Assembly (NCBI RefSeq): GCF_003918875.1
Contig: NW_025766525.1
Location: 566,865-630,864, forward strand
Reading direction: 5' to 3'
Source of the DNA: Haliotis rubra
Taxonomy: Eukaryota
DNA: 64,000 nucleotides
Position 1 is the first letter of the stretch. Each line of letters begins with the position of its first letter. The notes under the pieces were generated by a model that saw only the letters and a program-made list of their open reading frames with translations, had not been told where the DNA came from and did not search any database. Shown here in pieces: positions 3,781-63,240 of this stretch. The translations under genes were made by a program, and so were the position numbers.

Positions 3781-5643
3781 GTGTGGAAGAGGAAGGGAGG
3801 ACATTTCGCTCCAAGAGTGCATCTCTGTTAACAGCAAGAGACCAGGCAGAGGAAGATCTGCTTGGAATGGATGTGGAAATGGCTTCCTCTGTTCATCCTC
3901 CTTCCTCGGTTGCAGGACATGCAACCATTCTACCACAAGGAGAAGTCATTCAAACTGGTATGGCGTTCTACCCAACATCTGCTTCAACGACTTTCTCGTC
4001 TGGGCCAGTAGGGAAATTTAAACATGCTGAAAAATCCTCTTTTGGATCCGGATTTGGTAGTTCAGTGCTACCTGCTTCACAAACAATCCAAGCAGACAGA
4101 CAAGTGGCGACACCTTTTTCAACGGGTTTCTCATTTGGGGCAGTAGATATGTCTAAACATGCTGAAAAATCATCTTTTGGATCTAGATTTGGTAGTTCAG
4201 TGCTACCTGCTTCACAAACTATCCAAGCAGACAGACAAGTGGCGACACCTTCTTCAACGGAGTTTTCATTTGGGGCAGTAGATATGTCTAAACATGCTGA
4301 AAAATCATCTTTTGGATCTGGATTTGGTAGTTCAGTGCTACCTGCTTCACAAACTATCCAAGCAGACAGACAAGTGGCGACACCTTCTTCAACGAGTTTC
4401 TCATTGGGGGCAGTAGATATGTCTAAACATGCTGAAAAACCATCTTTTGGATCTGGATTTGGTAGTTCAGTGCTACCTGCTTCACAAACTATCCAAGCAG
4501 ACAGACAAGTGGCGACACCTTCTTCAACGAGTTTCTCATTGGGGGCAGTAGATATGTCTAAACATGCTGAAAAACCATCTTTTGGATCTGGATTTGGTTG
4601 TAATGTACAGATGCCATTTCACACAGACATCATGAAGCACAATCTGCCAGGATTCCAGGATTCACAGAGCTTCATGTCATCTCTTTCATCAGATGTCATG
4701 CAGCAGCAGCAACAACAACAGCCTCCAGTGAAATCTAATTCCCGGTTTGTAAACAAGCATGCAGATGAACAACTGTATCAGAGTAGTACATTTGGCATGC
4801 AACAACAACAACAGCAACAACAGGCATATCCTTCTGAGGAAAGGAGGCCCCTGTTTGGACAAAGCTATACAAAGGAACAAACATATCAGAGTGGTATGTT
4901 TGGAATGCAAGAGCAACAGCAGCAGCAACAAAAGAGCCCTCCACAACAGATACCCTTTGGTGGACAGCCACTATCATTGGAAGGAGGAAGAGGAGGAGGA
5001 TTTGGAGGACTATCTCGTTTCAATCAGGAATCTTTTAGTGGACAGTCGCTGTCATTTGGAGAAGGGGGACTTGGAGGAGATGGTGTAGGATTCGGAGGAC
5101 TATCTACGTCCCCATCAGACACCTTTTAGTGGACAGTCGCTGTCATTTGGAGGAGCGGGACTTGGAGGAGATGGTGTAGGATTTGGAGGAGCTTTCTCTG
5201 GGAGTCAGATGACACAGGGTTTTACTGCAGGCAAGAGGTCAGAAAAGACTGAAGTAACTCCAGTCAAGTTTTTCAGAGATTGGGAAGTACCAGAGAAACC
5301 AACTACTGGATTTGTTAATCAGAGTGGAATATTCCAGGGGTCTGACCCTTGCATCACCATGTTTCCTACGTTGTCCACTGACCAGGTGATGACTGAACCT
5401 CTAGCTGAGCCGACAAGCAATAAATTCACTCAGGGAGGCTACGGAGGAAAGATGCCATTCAGCTTCCAATCTGGATCTAGCAGTTTGAAGTATGGTGGCA
5501 CCATGGGGATTGTTTCAGGGGATGTGACAAGAAGAGCAACACCACTAGAACTTGGGGGTCATGTGACAGGTGCTGCAGCAGCTCACTATAGGAACCCCTT
5601 ACCTCAGGGCAACATCCAGATGGTCCTCCAGCTGCAGCATCAG
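3781..5643 (+). CDS. Long internal exon of gene A. It carries 5 x 135-bp near-identical coding repeats (KHAEKSSFGSGFGSSVLPASQTIQADRQVATP.STSFS.GAVDMS), poly-Q tracts and Gly-rich GFGG/LGG repeats. A frameshift near 5105-5130 breaks the frame. The exon ends at the donor CAG|gtgagt (5643/5644).
   Basis: The acceptor is ttctacag|gt at 3780/3781. The frame is open 3783-5129, then the +1 frame is open from 5101 to the donor at 5643. The frameshift lies inside a duplicated unit of about 93 bp (5031-5123 vs 5124-5200) that carries a 1-bp length difference. Exon phases at both ends match the neighbouring exons. Confidence 0.6.
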
Positions 5644-47504: not shown

Positions 47505-50500
47505 TAAAATTACATACCTATAACTTTCAGTTAATAACATTATCATGGTACACCAGGTATCCACACTCAGTGTAAGCTGAGCAAGCATAGTTCATGCCAC
47601 ACCACCACACGGGCTCTTCATTCAGCTGTTCACAATTATAGACAATAGGAAAAGTGGAAAGCAACTATCTCATTGTATCTGTTTTACTGTCCCTAAATAC
47701 ACTTGACATGCCATTACATTACATGTTGTGGTCTTTGTATGTTTGTTTTTGTCTGTCTGTTGGTATTTTCGTCTTGGTCTGGTTTACTTTGTATTTATTT
47801 ATCTCCAATATATTGTACAATTGTCAGTACTTGTCCCGGGGGATTATCATAAACTCTTAGGGTACTTATTGAATTGTAAATAACGTTCCAATACGCCGAC
47901 TTATTTATATATTTCTTCATATGGGTAATCATTGCGAAGTCATTGATATGACTACTCTCCCACTGTTCTCCATAGTTTGGAGTTTTGATTGTATTTAGTT
48001 GGGGTTTGTTTTGTTTTTGTGTTTTTTTCTTATCGTTTCTTTACCAACCGACGTGTACTACGTCCATTTACTTCACGCATTTACAGATGTCTAAACAGTA
48101 GTTATAATTGACATATTAATAAAATTACATACCTGTAATTTTCAATCAATAACATTATCCAGGTACACCAGGTATCCACACTCAGTGTAAGCTGAGCAAG
48201 CATAGTTCATGCCACACGACCCGCACGGGCTCTTCATTCAGAACATGCATACATAGCAGCTGTTCACAATTATAGACAATAGGAAAAGTGAAAGCAACTA
48301 TCTCATTGTATCTGTTTTACTGTCCCTAAATACACTTGACACGTCATTATTTACATGTTGTGGTCTTTGTATGTTTGTTTTGTCTGGTTGTGGGTATTTT
48401 CGTCTTGGTCTGGTTTACTTTGTATTTATTTATCTCCAATATATTGTACAGTTATCAGTACTTGTCTCAGGGGATTATCGTAAAGTCTTATGATACTTAT
48501 TGAATTGTAAATAACGTTCCAATACGTCGACTTATTTATATATTTCTTCATATGGGTAAGGTCGTGCCGAAGTCATTGATATGACTACTCACCCACGTTC
48601 TCCATTTTTTTGAGTTTTGATTGTATTTATTTTTTTATCGTTTCTTTACCAACCGACATGTACTACGTCCATCTATTTCACGCATGTTCAGATGTCTAAA
48701 CAGAAGTTATCCTTGCATGTTGGTACCACAACCTCATTTTCTATTTACTATTCTCATACTTCAAATGTTCCACATAATGTTTTACCTCACTACACGAAGC
48801 ATATTCCTCAAGCAGCACGTCCCACTGCCTCCAACTTCATATTGTTCGTAAGACAGATCGATGGGGGGTTGACATAACTCAGTATAGGATGGTAGTAGGG
48901 TTGTTCGCTGCTATTACCTCTAGTAGAAATAGTCGCCGTTTTGATAGATTTACTTGTTTTTGCATAGTCCTATGATTTCTTTATTATTGATATACTGTGG
49001 AGACGTACATCCAAACCCGGGTCCTGATCTTAGTATTATCCATTTAAACATACGTAGCTTGAGAGATAAAGTTGATCTACTTGCTGCCGAATACAGTCAC
49101 TATGACGTCATTTGTTTATCTGAGACTTGGTTAAGTCATGACGTAACGAATGATTCTATAGCTATATCCGGGTATCATCCGCCACTTCGTAAAGATAGAC
49201 CGACAAGGGGTGGAGGGGTTTAAAATTTGGGAAACACTTCAAGGATGCATTTAAGAGAACAATTTATGACTATAACCGTGCAGACTACGATGGGTTAAGT
49301 GATAGTATATCATCAACCGATTGGGACACTCTGTTTAGTGATGATATTAATATCTCTGTTGAAACTTTTACATCCACGCTCAGTAGATTAATCAATAAAT
49401 ATATTCCAAATAAAGAAGTAGTTATAAGACCTCGAGACTGTATATGGATGAACGGATATCTCATGGAAATTAATGAGGAAAAGAAACCGCCTACATAAAG
49501 TTGCTAAACGAAAAAATGATACCTATCATTGGGAATGTTTTAAAGTCGCTAGAAACAAAGTCATTTCGAAGTTAGAAAAGCTAAACGCAAGATATGATTT
49601 GAAACTTGATGATATCATTAACACCGATAGAGGAACTAAATCATGGTGGCGATTAGTAAATAAGCATATTAAGAAAAATAGAAATTCAGGTAAACAGTTT
49701 TCACCTATCACACACAACGGTACTGTTCTAGAAGATGCAGATGACATTGCTAATGCGTTTAATGAATACTTCACAGAACAAGCCCAAGTTGATTTAACCT
49801 AATATCGACTCACCTCCTCCCACTCACAGCTTAAAACAAATTAGATATAATTCTCTAACGGAAAATGAAGTGTATGATATCCTGGTGTGTTTAGACACAA
49901 AGAAAGCTAAGGGTCCTGATAATATCAGCAATAAATTATTAAAAGTTTTAGCTCGGCCTCTCCATAGACCCGTTACGAAGCTTTTGAATCTATCCCTAAA
50001 ACATTCTCAATTTCCCGACATTTGGAAATTTTCGGCAGTTGTCCCTCTTCACAAAAAAGGAAGTGTGCATGATTGTAATAATTATAGGCCAGTTGCTCTA
50101 TCTTGTTGTTTGGCTAAAGTATTTGAAAAGTGTATATTCAAGCACGTTTATAATTTCTTTATGGATAATGATATTATATCGAAACATCAGTCTGGATTTA
50201 AACCTGGTTTTATCAAAGGCTCTAGATGAGGGTAAAGAAGTCCGAGCTGTCTTTTGTGATATCAGCAAGGCCTTCGATCGTGTTTGGCACGCAGGGATGG
50301 TATCAAAACTTGAATCCATAGGAATAACTGGAAAACTATTGCTTTGGTTTGAAAATTATCTTAGTAATAGAAAACAGTCAGTTGTGATTAATGGCCACAA
50401 ATCGAGTCCAAAATTTGTATCGGCTGGTGTTCCTCAAGGCTCTGTCTTGGGGCCACTATTATTTCTCGTCTATATAAACGATTTAACCAACGGAATAGTA

Positions 50501-52050
50501 AGTAACGTTAAACTCTTTGCTGATGATACTTCCCTATACTTAGTAATTGAAGATCCGTTTCGGACACAGACATTGCTTAATAATGACCTTGAACGTATTT
50601 CAGACTGGGCTTCCAAGTGGCAGGTTAATTTCAACCCTGAAAAGACAGAAGCTATGTTATTCTCCAATGCAAGTCCGAAACTTCAATTAACACTTAATAA
50701 TACTGCGATTTCTGAAGTTTGTGAACATAAACATCTTGGTCTGATTATACAAGATGATGGAAAATGGCAGAATCATATTAATTATATACTAGCCAAAGCA
50801 AGTCCACTAATAAATTGTCTGAGAAGTTTGAAACACAGGCTAAACAGAATATCACTTGAAACTATGTATAAATCATATATTTTGCCTATATTTGACTACT
50901 GTGATACCATCTGGGATAACTGTACCAAGGAGCAGGCTCATCTGATAGAGAAGCTACATTTAGATGCCCTTAGGACTATTTCAGGTGCAGTGAGAGGCAC
51001 AAGTCATGATAAACTTTATGCTGAAACAGGATATTGTTCTTTAGTCGAAAGACGCCACTATCATAAATTATGTATGTTCTACAAAATGGTAAATGGGTTA
51101 ACACCACAATATCTCTCAATATGGGTACCACCAAATGTTTCTAATCAAAGCCTCTATAATTTGCTTAAACTCCGATAATCTCCAATGTAATGCAGGGCGT
51201 GTATCTTACTTTAATAATTCTTTTCTCCTATCTACTGTTAAGGCATGGAATTCGCTTGACATCAATATTAGAAATGTAGAATCATTATCAAAATTTAAGA
51301 AATGTATATCTTGTGACATGACATTATCCCCAACATTTAAGAATTATATATCGTATGGTCCCAGGCGAGGTCAAATTCTTCGCTGTCGTTTGCGCCTGGG
51401 CTGCAGTGATCTTAATTCTCACTTGTTTGATAGATATTTGTCAGACAGCCGAACCTGCTCCTGTGGGAACACTCGAGAAGATGCTTACCATTATTTCCTT
51501 CAGTGTCCTCTATATGATAGGTTTAGATTTAATAAATACTTCTTTCAAAATAATATAAGTTTACATGCTATTCTAAGCAGCGGTGAATCTTTGTCCCAGT
51601 ATGAAAACGAATTAATAATAAAATCGGTTTACAGTTTCTTAAATGATACCAACCGTTTTCCATGAAGTGTGGTACCATATGCTTTACTTAGTTTGAAATT
51701 ATTGAATTACTTATTTCCACAAATGTACTTATAAAATCATTCTCTGCAAGATTATGTTTAGGAGAAGCATTTACATAGGCTGATGCAGCCTGTTTGCTGA
51801 TCATTTTTCCTTTTTGTAACTTAATCATGTTTAATGTATATCACATGTCTTTCGGGAAATAAAAATACTGTTTAAATATGATCACCAGATTTAGAATATA
51901 TTCACTGTGATATTCCACGCTTGTAAGCTGTTATTTATCTTAATGATATAGCTATAGCTATTATATGTTATATTTTTATATTTTTTTTCTACATTGCAGT
52001 TAATGAAATAAAAAATAAAACTACTAAACTTTTCCAGGGTGGTTTTCTTT
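47505..52050 (+). mobile_element. Non-LTR retrotransposon (LINE, CR1/Jockey-like).
- Two tandem 5' monomers of about 610 bp (47505-48115 and 48118-48725).
- An ORF start carrying a 2A-like motif (LLIYCGDVHPNPGPD).
- APE endonuclease N-terminus (LSIIHLNIRSL...CLSETWL...RKDRPTRGGGV), followed by an internal deletion.
- RT domain (...NYRPVAL..., VRAVFCDISKAFDRVWH, LFADD).
- C-terminal CCHC-like motif (CSCGNTREDAYHYFLQCPLY).
   Basis: The motifs were read in ORFs 48954-49223, 49473-49802, 49870-50229, 50039-51178 and 51135-51665. Frameshifts are present. An AATAAA signal and an A-rich end lie near 52007-52050. Confidence 0.8.
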
Positions 52051-52639
52051 AATGAGTATTCACATCAAGAGTTCAGCCGTCTCCATGGAAACTGTTAGTT
52101 TTATAGCTTCTAGTTAATGGCAAACACAGAGTTTGGATAATAAAATGCTGTTGGTACAATTGATAGCAGAAGGCACACCAAGTTAAATATCTCGGTGGTT
52201 GCATGACGTTGATAGCAGAGGACACCAGGTGTCCAGCTTGGTTGCAGGTCATTGTCCCCTGGTACGTGTTATTGATCTTCAGTAACCCATGCTTGTAAGA
52301 GGTGACTAACAGGATCGGGTGGTCAGGCTCGCTGACTTGGTTGACACATGTCGTCGGTTCACAATTGCGCAGATTAATGCTCATGCTGTTGATCACTGGA
52401 TTGTCTGGTCCAGATTCGATTATTTACAGACCACCGCCATATATCTGGAATATTGCTGAGTGTGGCATTAAACAACCAACCAACCAACCAACCAATCCTC
52501 ATCTCAGTGTACCTCCACTACAGAACAAGTTAAAAAGTATCTTTCTCTTGAAATAGATTTTATTCCATGTTTTACAAAATGTACATTCAGAAAACATTTG
52601 TATTTACAATTTAGCCAGCTCTCAATCACATGCTGACTA

Positions 52640-53230
52640 TAGCCACATCATGTACACTCAACCACTGAATCATAGAATTGTTGATTCAGCACATTTAAGC
52701 ACTGAATCATTGATTCTGTACACTCGAACACTGAATCACTGATTCTGTACACTCGAACACTGAATCATTGAATCACTGAACCTGTACACGCGATCACTGA
52801 TTCTGTACACTCATACACTGAATAATTGAATCACTGATTTTGTACACTCAAACACTGAATCATTGAACCTGTACACGCGAACACTGAATCACTGATTCTG
52901 TACACTCGAACACTGAATCATTGATTCTGTACACTCATACACTGAATCATTGAATCACTGATTTTGTACACTCAAACACTGAATCATTGATTCTGTACAC
53001 TTGAACACTGAATCACTGATTTTGTACACTCAAACACTGAATCATTGATTCTGTACACTTGAACACTGATTCTGTTCACTCGAATACTGAATAACTGAAT
53101 TGCTGATTCTGCACATTTAAACACTGAATTGTTGAATAACTGATTTTGTAAAACTTAAAGACTGTATAGTTTAATCACTGATTCTGTACACTCATACACT
53201 GAATTGTTGAATCACTGACACCATATATTC
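52640..53230. repeat. Irregular tandem repeat of about 40 bp (ctgtacactcgaacactgaatcattgaatcactgatt...).
   Basis: Direct reading. It is degenerate. Confidence 0.7.
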
Positions 53231-53799: not shown

Positions 53800-54870
53800 T
53801 TTCACAATATGATCTTACACATAGGTAGGTGTACCGTGTATACGTGTTGTGTATCACCTAGGTAGGTGTACCATGTATACGTGTTGTGTATCACATAGGT
53901 AGGTGTACCGTGTATACGTGTTGTGTATCACATAGGTAGGTGTACCGTGTATATGTTTTGTGTATCACATAGGTAGATGTACCGTGTATACATGTTGTGT
54001 ATCACATGCCGTGTATGACATAGGTAGGTGTACCGTGTATACGTGTTGTGTATCACATAGGTAGATGTACCATGTATACGTGTTGTGTATCACATAGGTA
54101 GATGTATCGTGTATACATGTTGTGTATCACATGCCGTGTATGACATAGGTAGGTGTACCGTGTATACGTGTTGTGTATCACATGCCATGTATCACATAGG
54201 TAGGTGTACCGTGTATACGTGTTGTGTATCACATAGGTAGATGTACCGTGTATATGTGTTGTGTATCACATGCCGTGTATCACATAGGTAGGTGTACCGT
54301 GTATACGTGTTGTGTATGACATGCCATGTATACTTGTTGTGTATCACATGCCGTGTATCACATGCCGTGTATACGTGTTGTGTATCACATGCCATGTATA
54401 CTTGTGTATCACATACCGCGTATCATATGCCGTGTATACGTGTTGTGTATCACATGCTGTGTATACATGTTGTGTATCACATGCTATGTATCACATAGGA
54501 AGGTGTACCGAGTATACGTGTTGTGTATCACATGCCGTGTATGACATAGGTAGGTGTACTGTGTATACGTGTTGTGTATCACATAGGTAGATGTACCGTG
54601 TATACGTGTTGTGTATCACATAGGAAGGTGTACTGTGTATACGTTGTTGTCACACTGCGTATGACACAGGTGTACGTTGTTGTGTATCACATAGGTAGAT
54701 GTACGGTATATGTGTTATTATGTATGTGTGTATCACATGCCGTGTATCACATAGGTAGATGACATAGGTATGTTGGTGTATCACATAGGTAGGTGTACCA
54801 TGTATACGTGTTGTGTATCACATAGGTAGATGTACCATGTATATGTGTTGTGTATCATATGCTGTGTATC
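53800..54870. repeat. 37-bp satellite (taggtaggtgtaccgtgtatacgtgttgtgtatcaca), about 28 degenerate copies.
   Basis: Direct reading. The Cys/Val-rich ORFs in this region are artefacts. Confidence 0.85.
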
Positions 54871-55345
54871 ATCATGTGTATCATGACACACAAGAAAGAC
54901 ATATTGCTTTGTGCTGTTCCCTCAATCCTCATGACGAGATTCTTCTTGGTTTAGTGAGACATGTGACCAGCTTTGAGAGCATGTTACAGGTAACCTGTTC
55001 ACAGTGAAACCTGGATAATCCAGACAGAAGCATCCCGAGTGATGTCATGTTTCCTGATCAACAAAATATAGTGTTACCCTTTGTCATTTATATGAACAAA
55101 AACCCAGAATGAATATATTTATAGATAAAACTAGAAAAAGGAAGAAGAAAAGAGCTCATCTGAAGGTGAATCGATTATGAAAAGTGGCATGGTTTCACTG
55201 TGAATGTTTGTGGTGGAACATCCTCCCACCGAGGACGAACACCTGGCAGAGGATGTCAGCCACGTGGAATGTTACATCTCACTTCCAAACACCATACTTT
55301 CAAGTCTTTATACTTGATGTATGTCATCAAATCATAAAGACATTT

Positions 55346-55673
55346 TCAGCTATCAAACTCAAGACCATCCAGTTCCTCCTTGAGCTCAGTGTTGACCTGT
55401 GTCTCGATGTTGGATGGCACAACATCCAGGCAGATGTCGTACTGCTGGTCAAGCCCAAGGTAGGAGTCACTCATCAGGTAGAGGGTGTAGATGACACGTC
55501 CCACCGTCTCCGGTGTGTACAGAGCAAGTTGGGCCTTGGAGCGACTCCGCACGTACCCCATCCGCTTGAGTGCGATGAGTTCCTTGGTCTCCACCTCGCC
55601 GACCACAAGAACCCAGCCTTCATCCTTGGGCTTCGGGAACCGTGGACTGTGCGCCTTGCTGTCATTCTTCTGA
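55346..55673 (-). CDS. ASCC3: Last coding exon of a Sec63-domain DExH helicase, ASCC3-like (KNDSKAHSPRFPKPKDEGWVLVVGEVETKELIALKRMGYVRSRSKAQLALYTPETVGRVIYTLYLMSDSYLGLDQQYDICLDVVPSNIETQVNTELKEELDGLEFDS*).
   Basis: The acceptor is ttccttcag| (minus strand) at 55674. The stop is TGA at 55346-55348. The RFPK.KDEGW...GEV...ELIALKR.GY...YTPE..GR.IYTLY.MSD.YLGLDQQYDI block strongly resembles the C-terminus of ASCC3, recalled from memory, and less closely that of Brr2/SNRNP200. Confidence 0.8.
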
Positions 55674-56209
55674 AGGAACAAATTATTGTCATGAATGAGT
55701 GAGTGAGACAGGTGTTATACACTGGAGCCATGGAACTGATCCATGGTCTTTGCTGTGACAAGCGTATGCTTTAACCATTTGGCTACTGCACTATCTTATT
55801 TGCTGTAAAGCATTTGATACTTTCATCTTGTGCACAAGCAGGCAGCAATATATCTGTGATGTGGCTCTGTAAGTGAATATGTTTGGACTAGAGCAAAGTG
55901 AAAGTGAAACTATAAGCAGCATAGGCAATGACAACCTGACACAGACAAGACCCAGAGCCTGACTATTGATGCCCAGTCAGTTGTTACCACATGCAGGAGA
56001 CCTGACTACATCAAGGTTAGAATTGGTCTTCGGGAACCCTTCTTTGAGTGCCATTTAGAAGCTGGTAGGATGAAAGGAACAATGTCTAATGGATTGACCT
56101 ATCCTTCATGTATATATTCTCATTCTCGCTAACAACCAAATGGACTTTACTAAATGCAAGCTCACCGAAGCCATTCACATCAAACGCCAAAGACCAGCAT
56201 CAACCGTGA

Positions 56210-60403: not shown

Positions 60404-63240
60404 TCACTTCATTTCATCGGACATATTGAACAATGGCACTGTATGTACCTGACACATGGAATGATGGGACTGTATGTACCTGACATATGGAATGATGGGA
60501 CTGTATGTACCTGACACAAGGAATGATGGGACTGTATGTACCTGACACAAGGAATGATGGGACTGTATGTACCTGACATATGGAATGATGGGACTGTATG
60601 TGCCTGACACATTGAATGATGGGACTGTATGTGCCTGACACATGGAATGATGGGACTGTATGTACCTGACACATGGAATGATGGGACTGTATGTACCTGA
60701 CACATGGAATGATGGGACTGTATGTACCTGACACATGGAATGATGGGACTGTATGTACCCACAAGGAATGACACAAGGAATGATGGGACTGTATGTACCT
60801 GACACAATGGAATGATGGGACTGTATGTACCTGACACATGGAATGATGGGACTGTATGTACCTGACACATGGAATGATGGGACTGTATGTACCTGACACA
60901 AGGAATGATGGGACTGTATGTACCTGACACATGGAATGATGGGACTGTATGTACCTGACACAAGGAATGATGGGACTGTATGTACCTGACACATGGAATG
61001 ATGGGACTGTATGTACCTGACACAAGGAATGATGGGACTGTATGTACCTGACACATGGAATGATGGGACTGTATGTACCTGACACATGGAATGATGGGAC
61101 TGTATGTACCTGACACAAGGAATGATGGGACTGTATGTACCTGACACATGGAATGATGGGACTGTATGTACCTGACACATGGAATGATGGGACTGTATGT
61201 ACCTGACACAAGGAATGATGGGACTGTATGTGCCTGACACAAGGAATGATGGGACTGTATGTACCTGACACATGGAATGATGGACTGTATGTACCTGACA
61301 CAAGGAATGATGGGACTGTATGTACCTGACACAAGGAATGATGGGACTGTATGTACCTGACACCTGACACAAGGAATGATGGGACTGTATGTACCTGACA
61401 CAAGGAATGATGGGACTGTATGTACCTGACACATGGAATGATGGGACTGTATGTACCTGACACATGGAATGATGGGACCGTATGTACCTGACACATCTGA
61501 ATGATGGGACTGAATGACACATGGAATGATGGACTGTATGTGCCTGACACATGGAATGATGGGACTGTATGCAAACCTGACACAAGGAATGATGGATGTG
61601 CCTGACACATGGAATGATGGGACTGTATGTACCTGACACATGGAATGATGGGACTGTATGTACCTGACACATGGAATGGAATGATGGACTGTATGTACCT
61701 GGACACAAGGAATGATGGACTGTATGTGCCTGACACATGGAATGATGGGACTGTATGTACCTGACACAAGGAATGATGGGACTGTATGTACCTGGACACA
61801 AGGAATGATGGACTGTATGTACCTGACACAAGGAATGATGGGACTGTATGTACCTGACACAAGGAATGATGGGACTGTATGTACCTGACACAAGGAAATG
61901 ATGGGACTGTATGTACCTGTACAAGGAATGATGGGACTGTATGTACCTGACACAAGGAATGATGGGACTGTATGTACCTGACACATGGAATGATGGGACT
62001 GTATGTACCTGACACAAGGAATGATGGGACTGTATGTACCTGACACAAGGAATGATGGGACTGTATGTACCTGACACAAGGAATGATGGGACTGTATGTA
62101 CCTGACACATGGAATGATGGACTGTATGTACCTGACACAAGGAATGATGGGACTGTATGTACCTGACACAAGGAATGATGGGACTGTATGTACCTGACAG
62201 AAGGAATGATGGGACTGTATGTACCTGACACATGAAATGATGGGACTGTATGTACCTGACACATGGAATGATGGGACTGTATGTACCTGACACAAGGAAT
62301 GATGGGACTGTATGTACCTGACATATGGAATGATGGGACTGTATGTACCTGACATATGGAATGATGGGACTGTATGTACCTGACACATGGAATGATGGGA
62401 CTGAATGTACCTGACACAAGGAATGATGCGACTGTATGTGCCTGACAGAAGGAATGATGGGACTGTATGTGCCTGACACAAGGAATGATGGGACTGTATG
62501 TACCTGACATATGGAATGATGAGACTGTATGTACCTGACACATGGAATGATGAGACTGTATGTACCTGACACATGGAATGATGGGACTGTATGTCCCTGA
62601 CACATGGAATGATGGGAATGTATGTACCTGACACATGGAATGATGTATGGACTGTACTGATGTACCTGACACATGGAATGATGGGATGCACCCGACACAT
62701 GGAATGATGGGACTGTATGTACCTGACACAAGTAATGGTGGGACTGTATGTACCTGACACAAGGAATGATGGGACTGTATGTACCTGACACATGGAATGA
62801 TGGGACTGTATGCACCTGACACATGGAATGATGGGACTGTATGTACCTGACACATGGAATGATGGGACTGTATGTGCCTGACACAAGGAATGATGGGACT
62901 GTATGTACCAGACACATGGAATGATGGGACTGTATGTACCTGACACAAGGAATGATGGGACTGTATGTGCCAGACACATGGAATGATGGGACTGTATGTA
63001 CCTGACACATGGAATGATGGGACTGTATGTACCTGACACAAGGAATGATGGGACTGTATGTACCTGACACATGGAATGATGGGACTGTATGTACCTGACA
63101 CATGGAATGATGGGACTGTATGTACCTGACACAAGGAATGATGGGACTGTATGTACCTGACACATGGAATGATGGGACTGTATGTACCTGACACATGGAA
63201 TGATGGGACTGTATGTACCTGACACAAGGAATGACAGGAC
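60404..63240. repeat. 31-bp satellite (cctgacacatggaatgatgggactgtatgta, with acatgg/acaagg variants). About 90 copies fill a helicase intron.
   Basis: The 31-aa periodic spurious ORFs of up to about 1000 aa on the minus strand are artefacts. The unit is unrelated in sequence to the other 31-bp satellite at 56210-57640. Confidence 0.9.

Follow-up and report, generated by a model that had tools for sequence, protein, structure and literature searches.

A 2A-like peptide with histidine in place of glutamate precedes the endonuclease domain of a decayed Haliotis rubra LINE and is conserved among its relatives

Within a 64,000-nucleotide stretch of the Haliotis rubra genome (NCBI RefSeq assembly GCF_003918875.1, contig NW_025766525.1, positions 566,865 to 630,864 of the forward strand; hereafter the window, numbered from its first letter), we analyzed a 2A-like peptide, D-V-H-P-N-P-G-P, that is encoded on the plus strand directly ahead of the endonuclease domain of a long interspersed nuclear element (LINE). 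In living relatives of this element the peptide is probably a genuine StopGo-type recoding element, as judged by comparison with published 2A peptides, and the histidine that it carries at position 14 (p14) of the peptide, where canonical 2A peptides have glutamate, is by its distribution across the family a heritable, selected lineage variant that usually comes as His-Pro and is not a product of decay in the window copy. The anatomy of the element, the conservation of the peptide at the amino-acid level across its family, the existence of intact carriers and the decay of the window copy were all observed directly.

Position and family-wide conservation of the motif

Six-frame reading of the whole window returned a single NPGP, at 49014-49025 (+), inside an open reading frame (ORF) at 48954..49223 (+; translation MFLHSPMISLLLIYCGDVHPNPGPDLSIIHLNIRSLRDKVDLLAAEYSHYDVICLSETWLSHDVTNDSIAISGYHPPLRKDRPTRGGGV). 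The core octapeptide occupies 49002-49025 (+; GAC GTA CAT CCA AAC CCG GGT CCT), with the predicted skip site between Gly 49020-49022 and Pro 49023-49025, and, when N-P-G-P is numbered p16-p19, it has D-V at p12-p13 and His instead of the canonical Glu at p14 (CAT 49008-49010). The upstream half of the peptide, MISLLLIYCG (48972..49001, +), is Leu-rich and hydrophobic and has about 7-9 residues fewer than in relatives; its SLLLIYCG directly precedes the core, the N-terminus of the apurinic/apyrimidinic endonuclease (APE) follows directly after it, and the window's shortened peptide as a whole reads SPMISLLLIYCGDVHPNPGP. A preliminary description, made from the letters of this DNA alone, had placed D-V-x-x-N-P-G-P immediately before the APE N-terminus, which both the translation and a Pfam Exo_endo_phos match confirm; it had also put the motif at the start of the LINE ORF, and this part must be corrected, the ancestral start being an ATG at 48861, so that the ORF once began about 37 codons further upstream than it does now. 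By itself NPGP is not significant in a 64-kb window (0.52 occurrences expected per window, and at least one in 42 of 100 shuffles), but the fuller pattern D-[V/I/M]-x-x-N-P-G-P is expected only 0.01 times per window.

Because the window holds no other copies, the family test was made on outside sequences. The query consisted of only the 65 residues after NPGP (49026-49220) and was run as an exhaustive HMMER search against 1.84 billion representative proteins, so that the motif, being excluded from the query, could not add to the search score; this search replaced a word-index search with the 83-amino-acid N-terminus that had given only 2 matches, both motif-biased. It recovered 2064 relatives of the APE segment at E<=0.001, and 128 of the best 150 matches were informative in that 12 or more residues preceded the point where their APE alignment began. 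An exact NPGP stood just upstream of the APE in 96 of the 128, a one-off motif (NPGQ, NPRP, DPGP, HPGP and others) in 11, and no motif in 21. Conservation of NPGP and its upstream residues in other family members, which the preliminary description had named as the point to check, was thus found without the motif serving as bait, and it supports the earlier suggestion that this is a 2A-like peptide before a LINE APE of the sort reported in several non-LTR (long terminal repeat) lineages (Odon 2013, PMC3708506).

Residues at p12-p15 were counted in the 94 readable octapeptides, at sites picked by N-P-G-P at p16-p19. Asp occupied p12 in 79 of the 94 and Ile or Val p13 in 91, while p14 was divided almost evenly between Glu (45) and His (44), with Gln in 3. 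The upstream context was alike in the Glu and His groups, with Leu at p6-p9 (44-82% across the family), Ser, Cys or Ala at p10 and Gly at p11 (67-82%), giving a family form of LLLL-x-G-D-[VI]-[EH]-x-NPGP upstream of the APE. Both the APE and the reverse transcriptase (RT) domains are intact in relatives P0123, P0159, P0241 and L003 (P and L numbers are our handles for related sequences and loci). A separate search with the RT returned 7396 relatives at E<=1e-20, all of them RT-only fragments of at most 560 amino acids and thus without N-termini. The only one with a name of its own is a Mizuhopecten yessoensis protein, 'RNA-directed DNA polymerase from transposon BS'; others come from contigs that had been binned with lucinid-clam symbionts, which we take to be host contamination, and from an 'invertebrate metagenome', and together these sources point to bivalves and other marine invertebrates.

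Histidine at p14 in the family and among known 2A peptides

The histidine of the window follows its lineage. It was present in 9 of the 11 closest relatives (at least 57% identity over the APE segment), of which P0123 (LLLLCSGDVHPNPGP), P0124 (LLLLCCGDIHPNPGP) and P0127 (LLLLCCGDVHPNPGP) are examples of the His type, and it was coupled to its neighbor, with Pro at p15 following His in 35 of 44 sequences and Glu in 2 of 45 (Fisher p=5e-14). When nearest neighbors were defined from downstream sequence only, 69 of 89 sequences had the same p14 state as their neighbor, against 49% expected, and because neighbors share their state we read p14 as inherited with occasional switches. The three sequences with the rare Gln at p14 might represent a mutational intermediate between Glu and His.

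A metagenome scan supplied 80 related DNA loci with 73 distinct His-type sites, a set biased toward the His type because the motif was one of the two search patterns. Across the 73 distinct His-type loci every codon of the motif varied synonymously while the amino acids were fixed: Asp was GAT in 48 and GAC in 24, His was CAT in 39 and CAC in 34, Asn was AAC in 40 and AAT in 33, and each Pro and Gly used all four of its codons. Synonymous differences at 5 of the 8 motif codons were already present among the window, L001 and L002. Such variation around fixed residues argues that selection acted on the peptide and not on the nucleotide sequence. At 15 loci an open frame of 950 amino acids or more spans leader, His-form 2A, APE and RT, among them a complete ORF of 1170 amino acids in L003 (residues ending in NPGP: ...SQTISIAICLLLFMCGDIHPNPGP), and these long frames indicate that His-type elements were recently intact.

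Several known systems bear on how the peptide should be classified. Among non-LTR elements, 2A-like peptides were described in L1Tc and Ingi (Heras 2006) and in ORF2 of Rex1, L2, L2A, Crack, CR1 and Ingi elements of sea urchin, amphioxus, molluscs and cnidarians, where active ones lie 40-80 amino acids from the ORF2 N-terminus and some right before the APE, in CR1, L2, Rex1 and Ingi, molluscs included (Odon 2013, PMC3708506). The peptides of our family resemble these LINE 2As in lying about 55-60 amino acids from the ORF start and immediately before the APE, in combining a Leu-rich tract with a G-D-[V/I]-x-x-N-P-G-P core, and in their marine-invertebrate hosts, molluscs among them; substitutions at the Glu position are frequent in the published set too, one of them E->H. 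They differ in having an upstream leader with a conserved N-terminal motif of its own, and whereas non-conservative changes at the Glu site were regarded as inactivating in the published work (Odon 2013, PMC3708506), in the lineage of the window His, mostly as His-Pro, is as frequent as Glu and is clearly selected. The 2A is in frame in 15 long ORFs of relatives, and the frame is broken in the window copy.

Viral peptides agree with the window at the residue level. In yadokariviruses GDVHPNPGP is the conserved 2A-like motif (PMC10817634). Viral class A 2A peptides that have the rare His at p14 show the window's nonapeptide in identical form, G-D-V-H-P-N-P-G-P, in which His is likewise paired with Pro at p15; these viral peptides lie inside RNA-virus polyproteins, C-proximally in yadokariviruses, whereas the window-type peptide sits at the N-terminus of a retrotransposon ORF. 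The motif shared by window and yadokarivirus nonapeptides is too short for common ancestry to be inferred. The T2A peptide of Thosea asigna virus is EGRGSLLTCGDVEENPGP. Its layout, S-L-L-x-C-G-D-V-x-x-N-P-G-P, is like S-L-L-L-I-Y-C-G-D-V-H-P-N-P-G-P of the window, but in place of the window's His-Pro T2A carries Glu-Glu, and the spacing from the Leu run to Cys-Gly differs by two residues.

Class A 2A peptides are laid out as a Leu-rich tract, a small residue and Gly (Rao 2025, PMC12338488; PMC13405545); the tract is helix-prone and lies at about -14 to -10, p12 is Asp (or Gly, Cys or Asn) and p13 is Val or Ile. Read as sequence, the window peptide departs from the canonical D(V/I)ExNPGP at the Glu and fits the expanded StopGo motif, which admits His at p14 as a rare but validated variant (PMC12846837), in every feature. 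Class B peptides, W-x3-[LV]-x2-E-G-[IV]-E-P-[N/H]-P-G-P (Rao 2025, PMC12338488), likewise have Pro just before the Asn of NPGP, but the window has its His at p14 and not p16 and its Leu-rich tract is of the class A type; we rejected class B membership, there being no Trp near -16 in the window and a far-upstream Trp that never exceeds 16% in relatives. The 2A-like signals of sea-urchin NLR receptors (Roulston 2016, PMC4981915) are comparable in having a hydrophobic N-terminal tract that ends in a 2A core in a marine invertebrate, but they comprise about 26 amino acids at the extreme N-terminus of receptors, whereas the window-type leader comprises 55-120 amino acids before a nuclear enzyme. 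Assignment to that class of cleavable N-terminal signal peptides of about 26 amino acids was rejected, as the leader is of this greater length, starts with polar residues and has its hydrophobic segment internally.

A conserved leader in a decayed LINE copy

Judging by the N-termini of relatives, the ancestral LINE ORF began at an ATG at 48861..48863 (+) that is now out of frame, and the interval 48861..48972 (+) preserves the remnant of a conserved leader of about 55 amino acids (..VDITQYRMVVGLFAAITSSRNSRRFDRFTCFCIVL), in the frame of 48868 and not in that of the 2A. Leaders of relatives match the window from 48868 to 48966-48972 (tblastn, E about 1e-9). Removing one G from the six-G run at 48863-48868 brings ATG 48861 into frame and yields MGVDITQYRMVVGLF... 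(MGVDITQYR...), a reconstructed N-terminus that matches those of relatives L005 (MGIDLNLYRQRVG), L002 (MCIDIMQYRQAIG) and P0136 (MPVDLVQYRQAVG). The leader now lies in another frame because of the extra G in this run together with a deletion of about nine codons with frameshift near 48966-48975; in the alignment with relatives the window is short of about 7-9 residues between ..CIVL and ..MISLLLIY, and the frame changes there. In the reconstructed window ORF NPGP falls at about residue 54, against 56-62 in the closest relatives, and a second length class among relatives has it at about residue 103-121.

Further leader N-termini conserved among the closest relatives are MPVDLVQYRQAVGSF.. and MTVDVMHYRQTVGSF.., and the motif M-x-x-[DE]-x-x-x-[YH]-R-x-x-[IV]-G-x-[FY], from residues 2-9 onward, was present in 23 sequences of both Glu and His types (22 from among the 150 relatives, and P0274, a cluster member). 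Carriers include P0123-P0127, P0136, P0241 and P0274 as well as L002, L003, L005, L007, L010, L053, L061, L075 and L076. After this N-terminal motif the leader has an internal hydrophobic, transmembrane-like segment, the maximum Kyte-Doolittle 19-residue score of the leaders having a median of 2.04 and reaching at least 1.6 in 76%. The leader matched no Pfam family.

Several more distant relatives have an ORF1 0.8-1.5 kb upstream of the ORF with leader and 2A. In one group, from metagenome contigs, this ORF1 encodes a NADAR domain (PF08719, E 1e-21 to 1e-40; L011 82-1014, L014 20-1045, L032 120-701, L077 128-595, and also L060 and L064), which looks unusual for a LINE; the identity of 81% between L011 and L014 extends from ORF1 across the whole spacer (about 1.45 kb) into ORF2, which shows that the three parts form one element. 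In another group it is an L1-type ORF1 with a coiled coil and 'DDLEQYSRRNxLRI' (coiled-coil/RRM; L003 177-1058, L055 408-1406, L070 748-1536, L041 35-688), and between it and the 2A-bearing ORF2 lies a non-coding spacer of unusual length, 0.8-1.5 kb. The published correlation of 2A with ORF1 loss (Odon 2013, PMC3708506) is qualified by these ORF1-bearing relatives, the family differing in that several members keep ORF1. No ORF1 homolog was found in the window by tblastn with nine ORF1s from relatives, nor in the closest relatives L002, L005 and L008.

The object in the window is, by its domains, an APE-type non-LTR retrotransposon on the plus strand from about 48861 to at least 51797, since a truncated Exo_endo_phos, RVT_1 and a weak zf-RVT follow one another in order. 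It most likely belongs to a CR1/L2/Crack/Jockey-like group, and the region around the motif is the 5' coding end of this long-dead copy. Its APE is represented by the N-terminal 65 residues (49026..49220, +; DLSIIHLNIRSL...LSETWL...RKDRPTRGGGV), which match positions 3-72 of the 225 in Exo_endo_phos with a score under the curated cut-off, the domain being reduced to its first third. An internal deletion with its junction at 49220..49250 (+) removed about 150 APE codons (residues ~135-286 of relatives; tblastn of the L007, L002 and L005 ORFs). There follow the APE-RT linker at 49250..49793 (+), in two frames (49250-49456 and 49470-49793), the RT region at 49798..51175 (+), again in two frames (49798-50208 and 50195-51175; Pfam RVT_1 E=3e-31), and a C-terminal region at 51183..51665 (+) with a zinc-knuckle-like CX2C...H...C (weak Pfam zf-RVT, E=0.0046; homology to the C-termini of L003 and L005) that ends at the element's stop codon, 51663-51665 (+).

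In the 3' untranslated region (UTR), a conserved block at 51766..51797 (+; GGCATTTACATAGGCTGATGCAGCCTGTTTGC) with the hairpin AGGCTG-ATG-CAGCCT is common to the window and L005 (~4620-4656; blastn, 78% identity over 59 nt, E=4e-6) and may serve as a LINE 3' recognition element; the 3' end of the element lies downstream of 51797. This short block was the only DNA similarity to relatives in the 3' UTR, and none was detected in the 5' UTR. The 5' flank at 48301-48710 is part of another repeat, which places the 5' end of the LINE between 48711 and 48861. When long relatives were mapped onto the window, at least four further frame changes were seen, at about 49460, 49795, 50208 and 51175. Given the leader lesions, the loss of APE and the frameshifts, we regard the copy as a pseudogene and ATG 48972 and TTG 48954 as accidental starts, and because the frame is broken both before and behind the motif, nothing functions in the window copy. 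No second copy of the element was found in the window by blastn and tblastn of the element.

Other features of the window were recorded alongside. Directly 5' of the LINE are two copies of another repeat, at 47668-48105 and 48301-48710, which are 86% identical over about 440 nt and whose short ORFs share the peptide FVLVWFTLYLFISNILY. An ORF at 55346-55681 (-) corresponds to the C-terminal portion of the Sec63 Brl domain (PF02889, E=1.7e-10) and is probably an exon of a host Brr2/ASCC3-type helicase gene. Tandem repeat arrays lie at 52651-53218 (periods 29, 58 and 124) and at about 54050-55010, where the ORFs on one strand repeat the peptide ..YHIGRCTVYTCCVSHAV.., and there is a (CAAC)n microsatellite at 52473-52495. 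Very weak tblastn matches to the C-terminal part of the RT at 60571-61752 (-; E 0.16-0.45) may be other retroelement remnants, or noise.

Proposed mechanism, alternatives and significance

Taken together with published work on 2A peptides, these features suggest the following model. The ancestral element would have had a single long ORF encoding, in order, a leader of about 55 amino acids, a class-A-type 2A/StopGo peptide, APE and RT, with the leader composed of the N-terminal M-x-x-D-x-x-x-Y-R-x-x-[IV]-G-x-F followed by a hydrophobic stretch, and with an ancestral StopGo peptide of the form LLLL-[C/S]-G-D-[V/I]-H-P-N-P-G|P. As an intact relative is translated, the 2A still inside the ribosome exit tunnel would keep the Gly-Pro bond from forming, the leader-2A peptide would be released and translation would go on from the Pro, so that APE-RT would become a protein of its own, probably at a lower level.

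The skipping step itself is carried over from published assays on other sequences. The preliminary description had noted the replacement of Glu by His, which stands, and had called activity uncertain, which published assays of p14 His peptides allow us to restate as likely but context-dependent. In favor, natural viral peptides with His at p14, whose p15 is biased to Pro, gave more than 95% StopGo in rabbit reticulocyte lysate (PMC12846837), and in P2A E14H was the sole tolerated substitution at D12/E14/N16, with a score of 0.85 (bioRxiv 10.64898/2026.09.24.754024); the conserved yadokarivirus motif GDVHPNPGP (PMC10817634) counts on this side as well. Weighing on the other side are the one E->H LINE 2A-like peptide assayed (amphioxus Crack-15_BF or Crack-17_BF) with very low in vitro activity (Odon 2013, PMC3708506) and the F2A variant E14H, which fell under the 0.6 threshold (bioRxiv 10.64898/2026.09.24.754024). 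To these may be added that high activity in HEK293T cells was seen for only 7.4% of 580 retroelement-associated 2A-like peptides, and that 59% of the ORF2p-associated 2A-like peptides assayed mainly lowered protein abundance instead of skipping cleanly (PMC13405545). The window copy, moreover, is a pseudogene without about eight residues of the upstream tract, and its peptide in the present form may never have been exposed to selection. A stronger version of the proposal, in which His-Pro D-[V/I]-H-P-N-P-G-P is a distinct, co-adapted StopGo class that marine-invertebrate LINEs keep beside the Glu form and releases a functional leader micropeptide of about 55 amino acids, is possible but doubtful.

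Among the alternatives, the one closest to StopGo recoding is that the conserved His-Pro peptide is a 'stall-helix' or attenuator that lowers APE-RT through fall-off or degradation and gives few discrete products. Leu at -14 to -11 is a signature of reduced abundance, a class that holds 59% of the ORF2p 2A-like peptides assayed (PMC13405545), and exactly such a Leu run is in the family consensus; cleavage assays found almost no activity for the E->H peptide of Crack (Odon 2013, PMC3708506), and down-regulation of ORF2p has been argued to be the purpose of the 2A (Luke 2013; Odon 2013, PMC3708506). Attenuation nevertheless seems unlikely, as p14 His peptides separate by more than 95% in their natural viral contexts (PMC12846837) and the conserved N-terminal motif of the leader is easier to explain if the leader is a released product, and it differs from StopGo recoding in degree and not in kind. 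It is quite improbable that the hydrophobic leader and the motif direct the protein to membranes, whether as a signal or anchor that stays uncleaved or as a 2A-like signal with dual targeting: the leaders do have the transmembrane-like segment (median Kyte-Doolittle maximum 2.04, 76% at least 1.6) and dual-function N-terminal 2A-like signal sequences exist (Roulston 2016, PMC4981915), but what follows the leader is an endonuclease and RT that act in the nucleus, and a leader of 55-120 amino acids with a polar conserved N-terminal motif is unlike signal peptides of about 26 amino acids at the extreme N-terminus.

Conservation could also reflect a nucleotide-level 5' element of the LINE, for instance an RNA structure or a promoter inside the element, the motif lying within about 170 nt of the ORF start. 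Internal promoters are present at LINE 5' ends. This reading is nonetheless very improbable, being contradicted by the codon counts of the 73 loci, in which all eight codons vary freely while the residues are fixed, and DNA similarity to relatives was not detectable in the 5' region. Least credible of all is that NPGP arose by chance or that its His is a Glu->His remnant of this degraded copy alone. NPGP by itself is indeed near its chance expectation (0.52 per window) and the window copy is heavily decayed, but the eight-residue pattern is expected only 0.01 times, and the reading is refuted by the recurrence of the motif in the same place in 96 of 128 relatives found without it, 44 of them with His, and by intact ORFs with the His form.

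The kind of feature described here is already known, and His at p14 has been seen before in LINE and viral peptides (PMC3708506; PMC12846837; PMC10817634). In full-text literature searches, with figures and supplements outside their reach, HPNPGP occurred only in a mycovirus paper and the leader motif was not found, and the papers searched do not seem to state that His-Pro is as common as Glu, that His and Pro are coupled, or that a conserved leader precedes the peptide. For the window itself the finding carries little weight, the copy being a fossil LINE and the 2A-like peptide a textbook feature of several LINE clades. At the level of the family, the supposedly essential Glu at p14 is His in about half of the lineages of one large LINE group, a replacement under purifying selection; this natural His-Pro covariation could guide structure-function work on StopGo, and a selected His-Pro form offers a simple explanation for E14H as the one tolerated substitution in deep mutational scans. 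If the stronger reading of the His-Pro form is true, LINE genes described as 'single-ORF' that carry a His-Pro StopGo would encode two proteins, and the leader micropeptide would have its own role in retrotransposition or host interaction. A conserved, released leader would also make the purpose of retrotransposon 2A peptides more testable, as a choice between supplying a functional product and throttling ORF2p.

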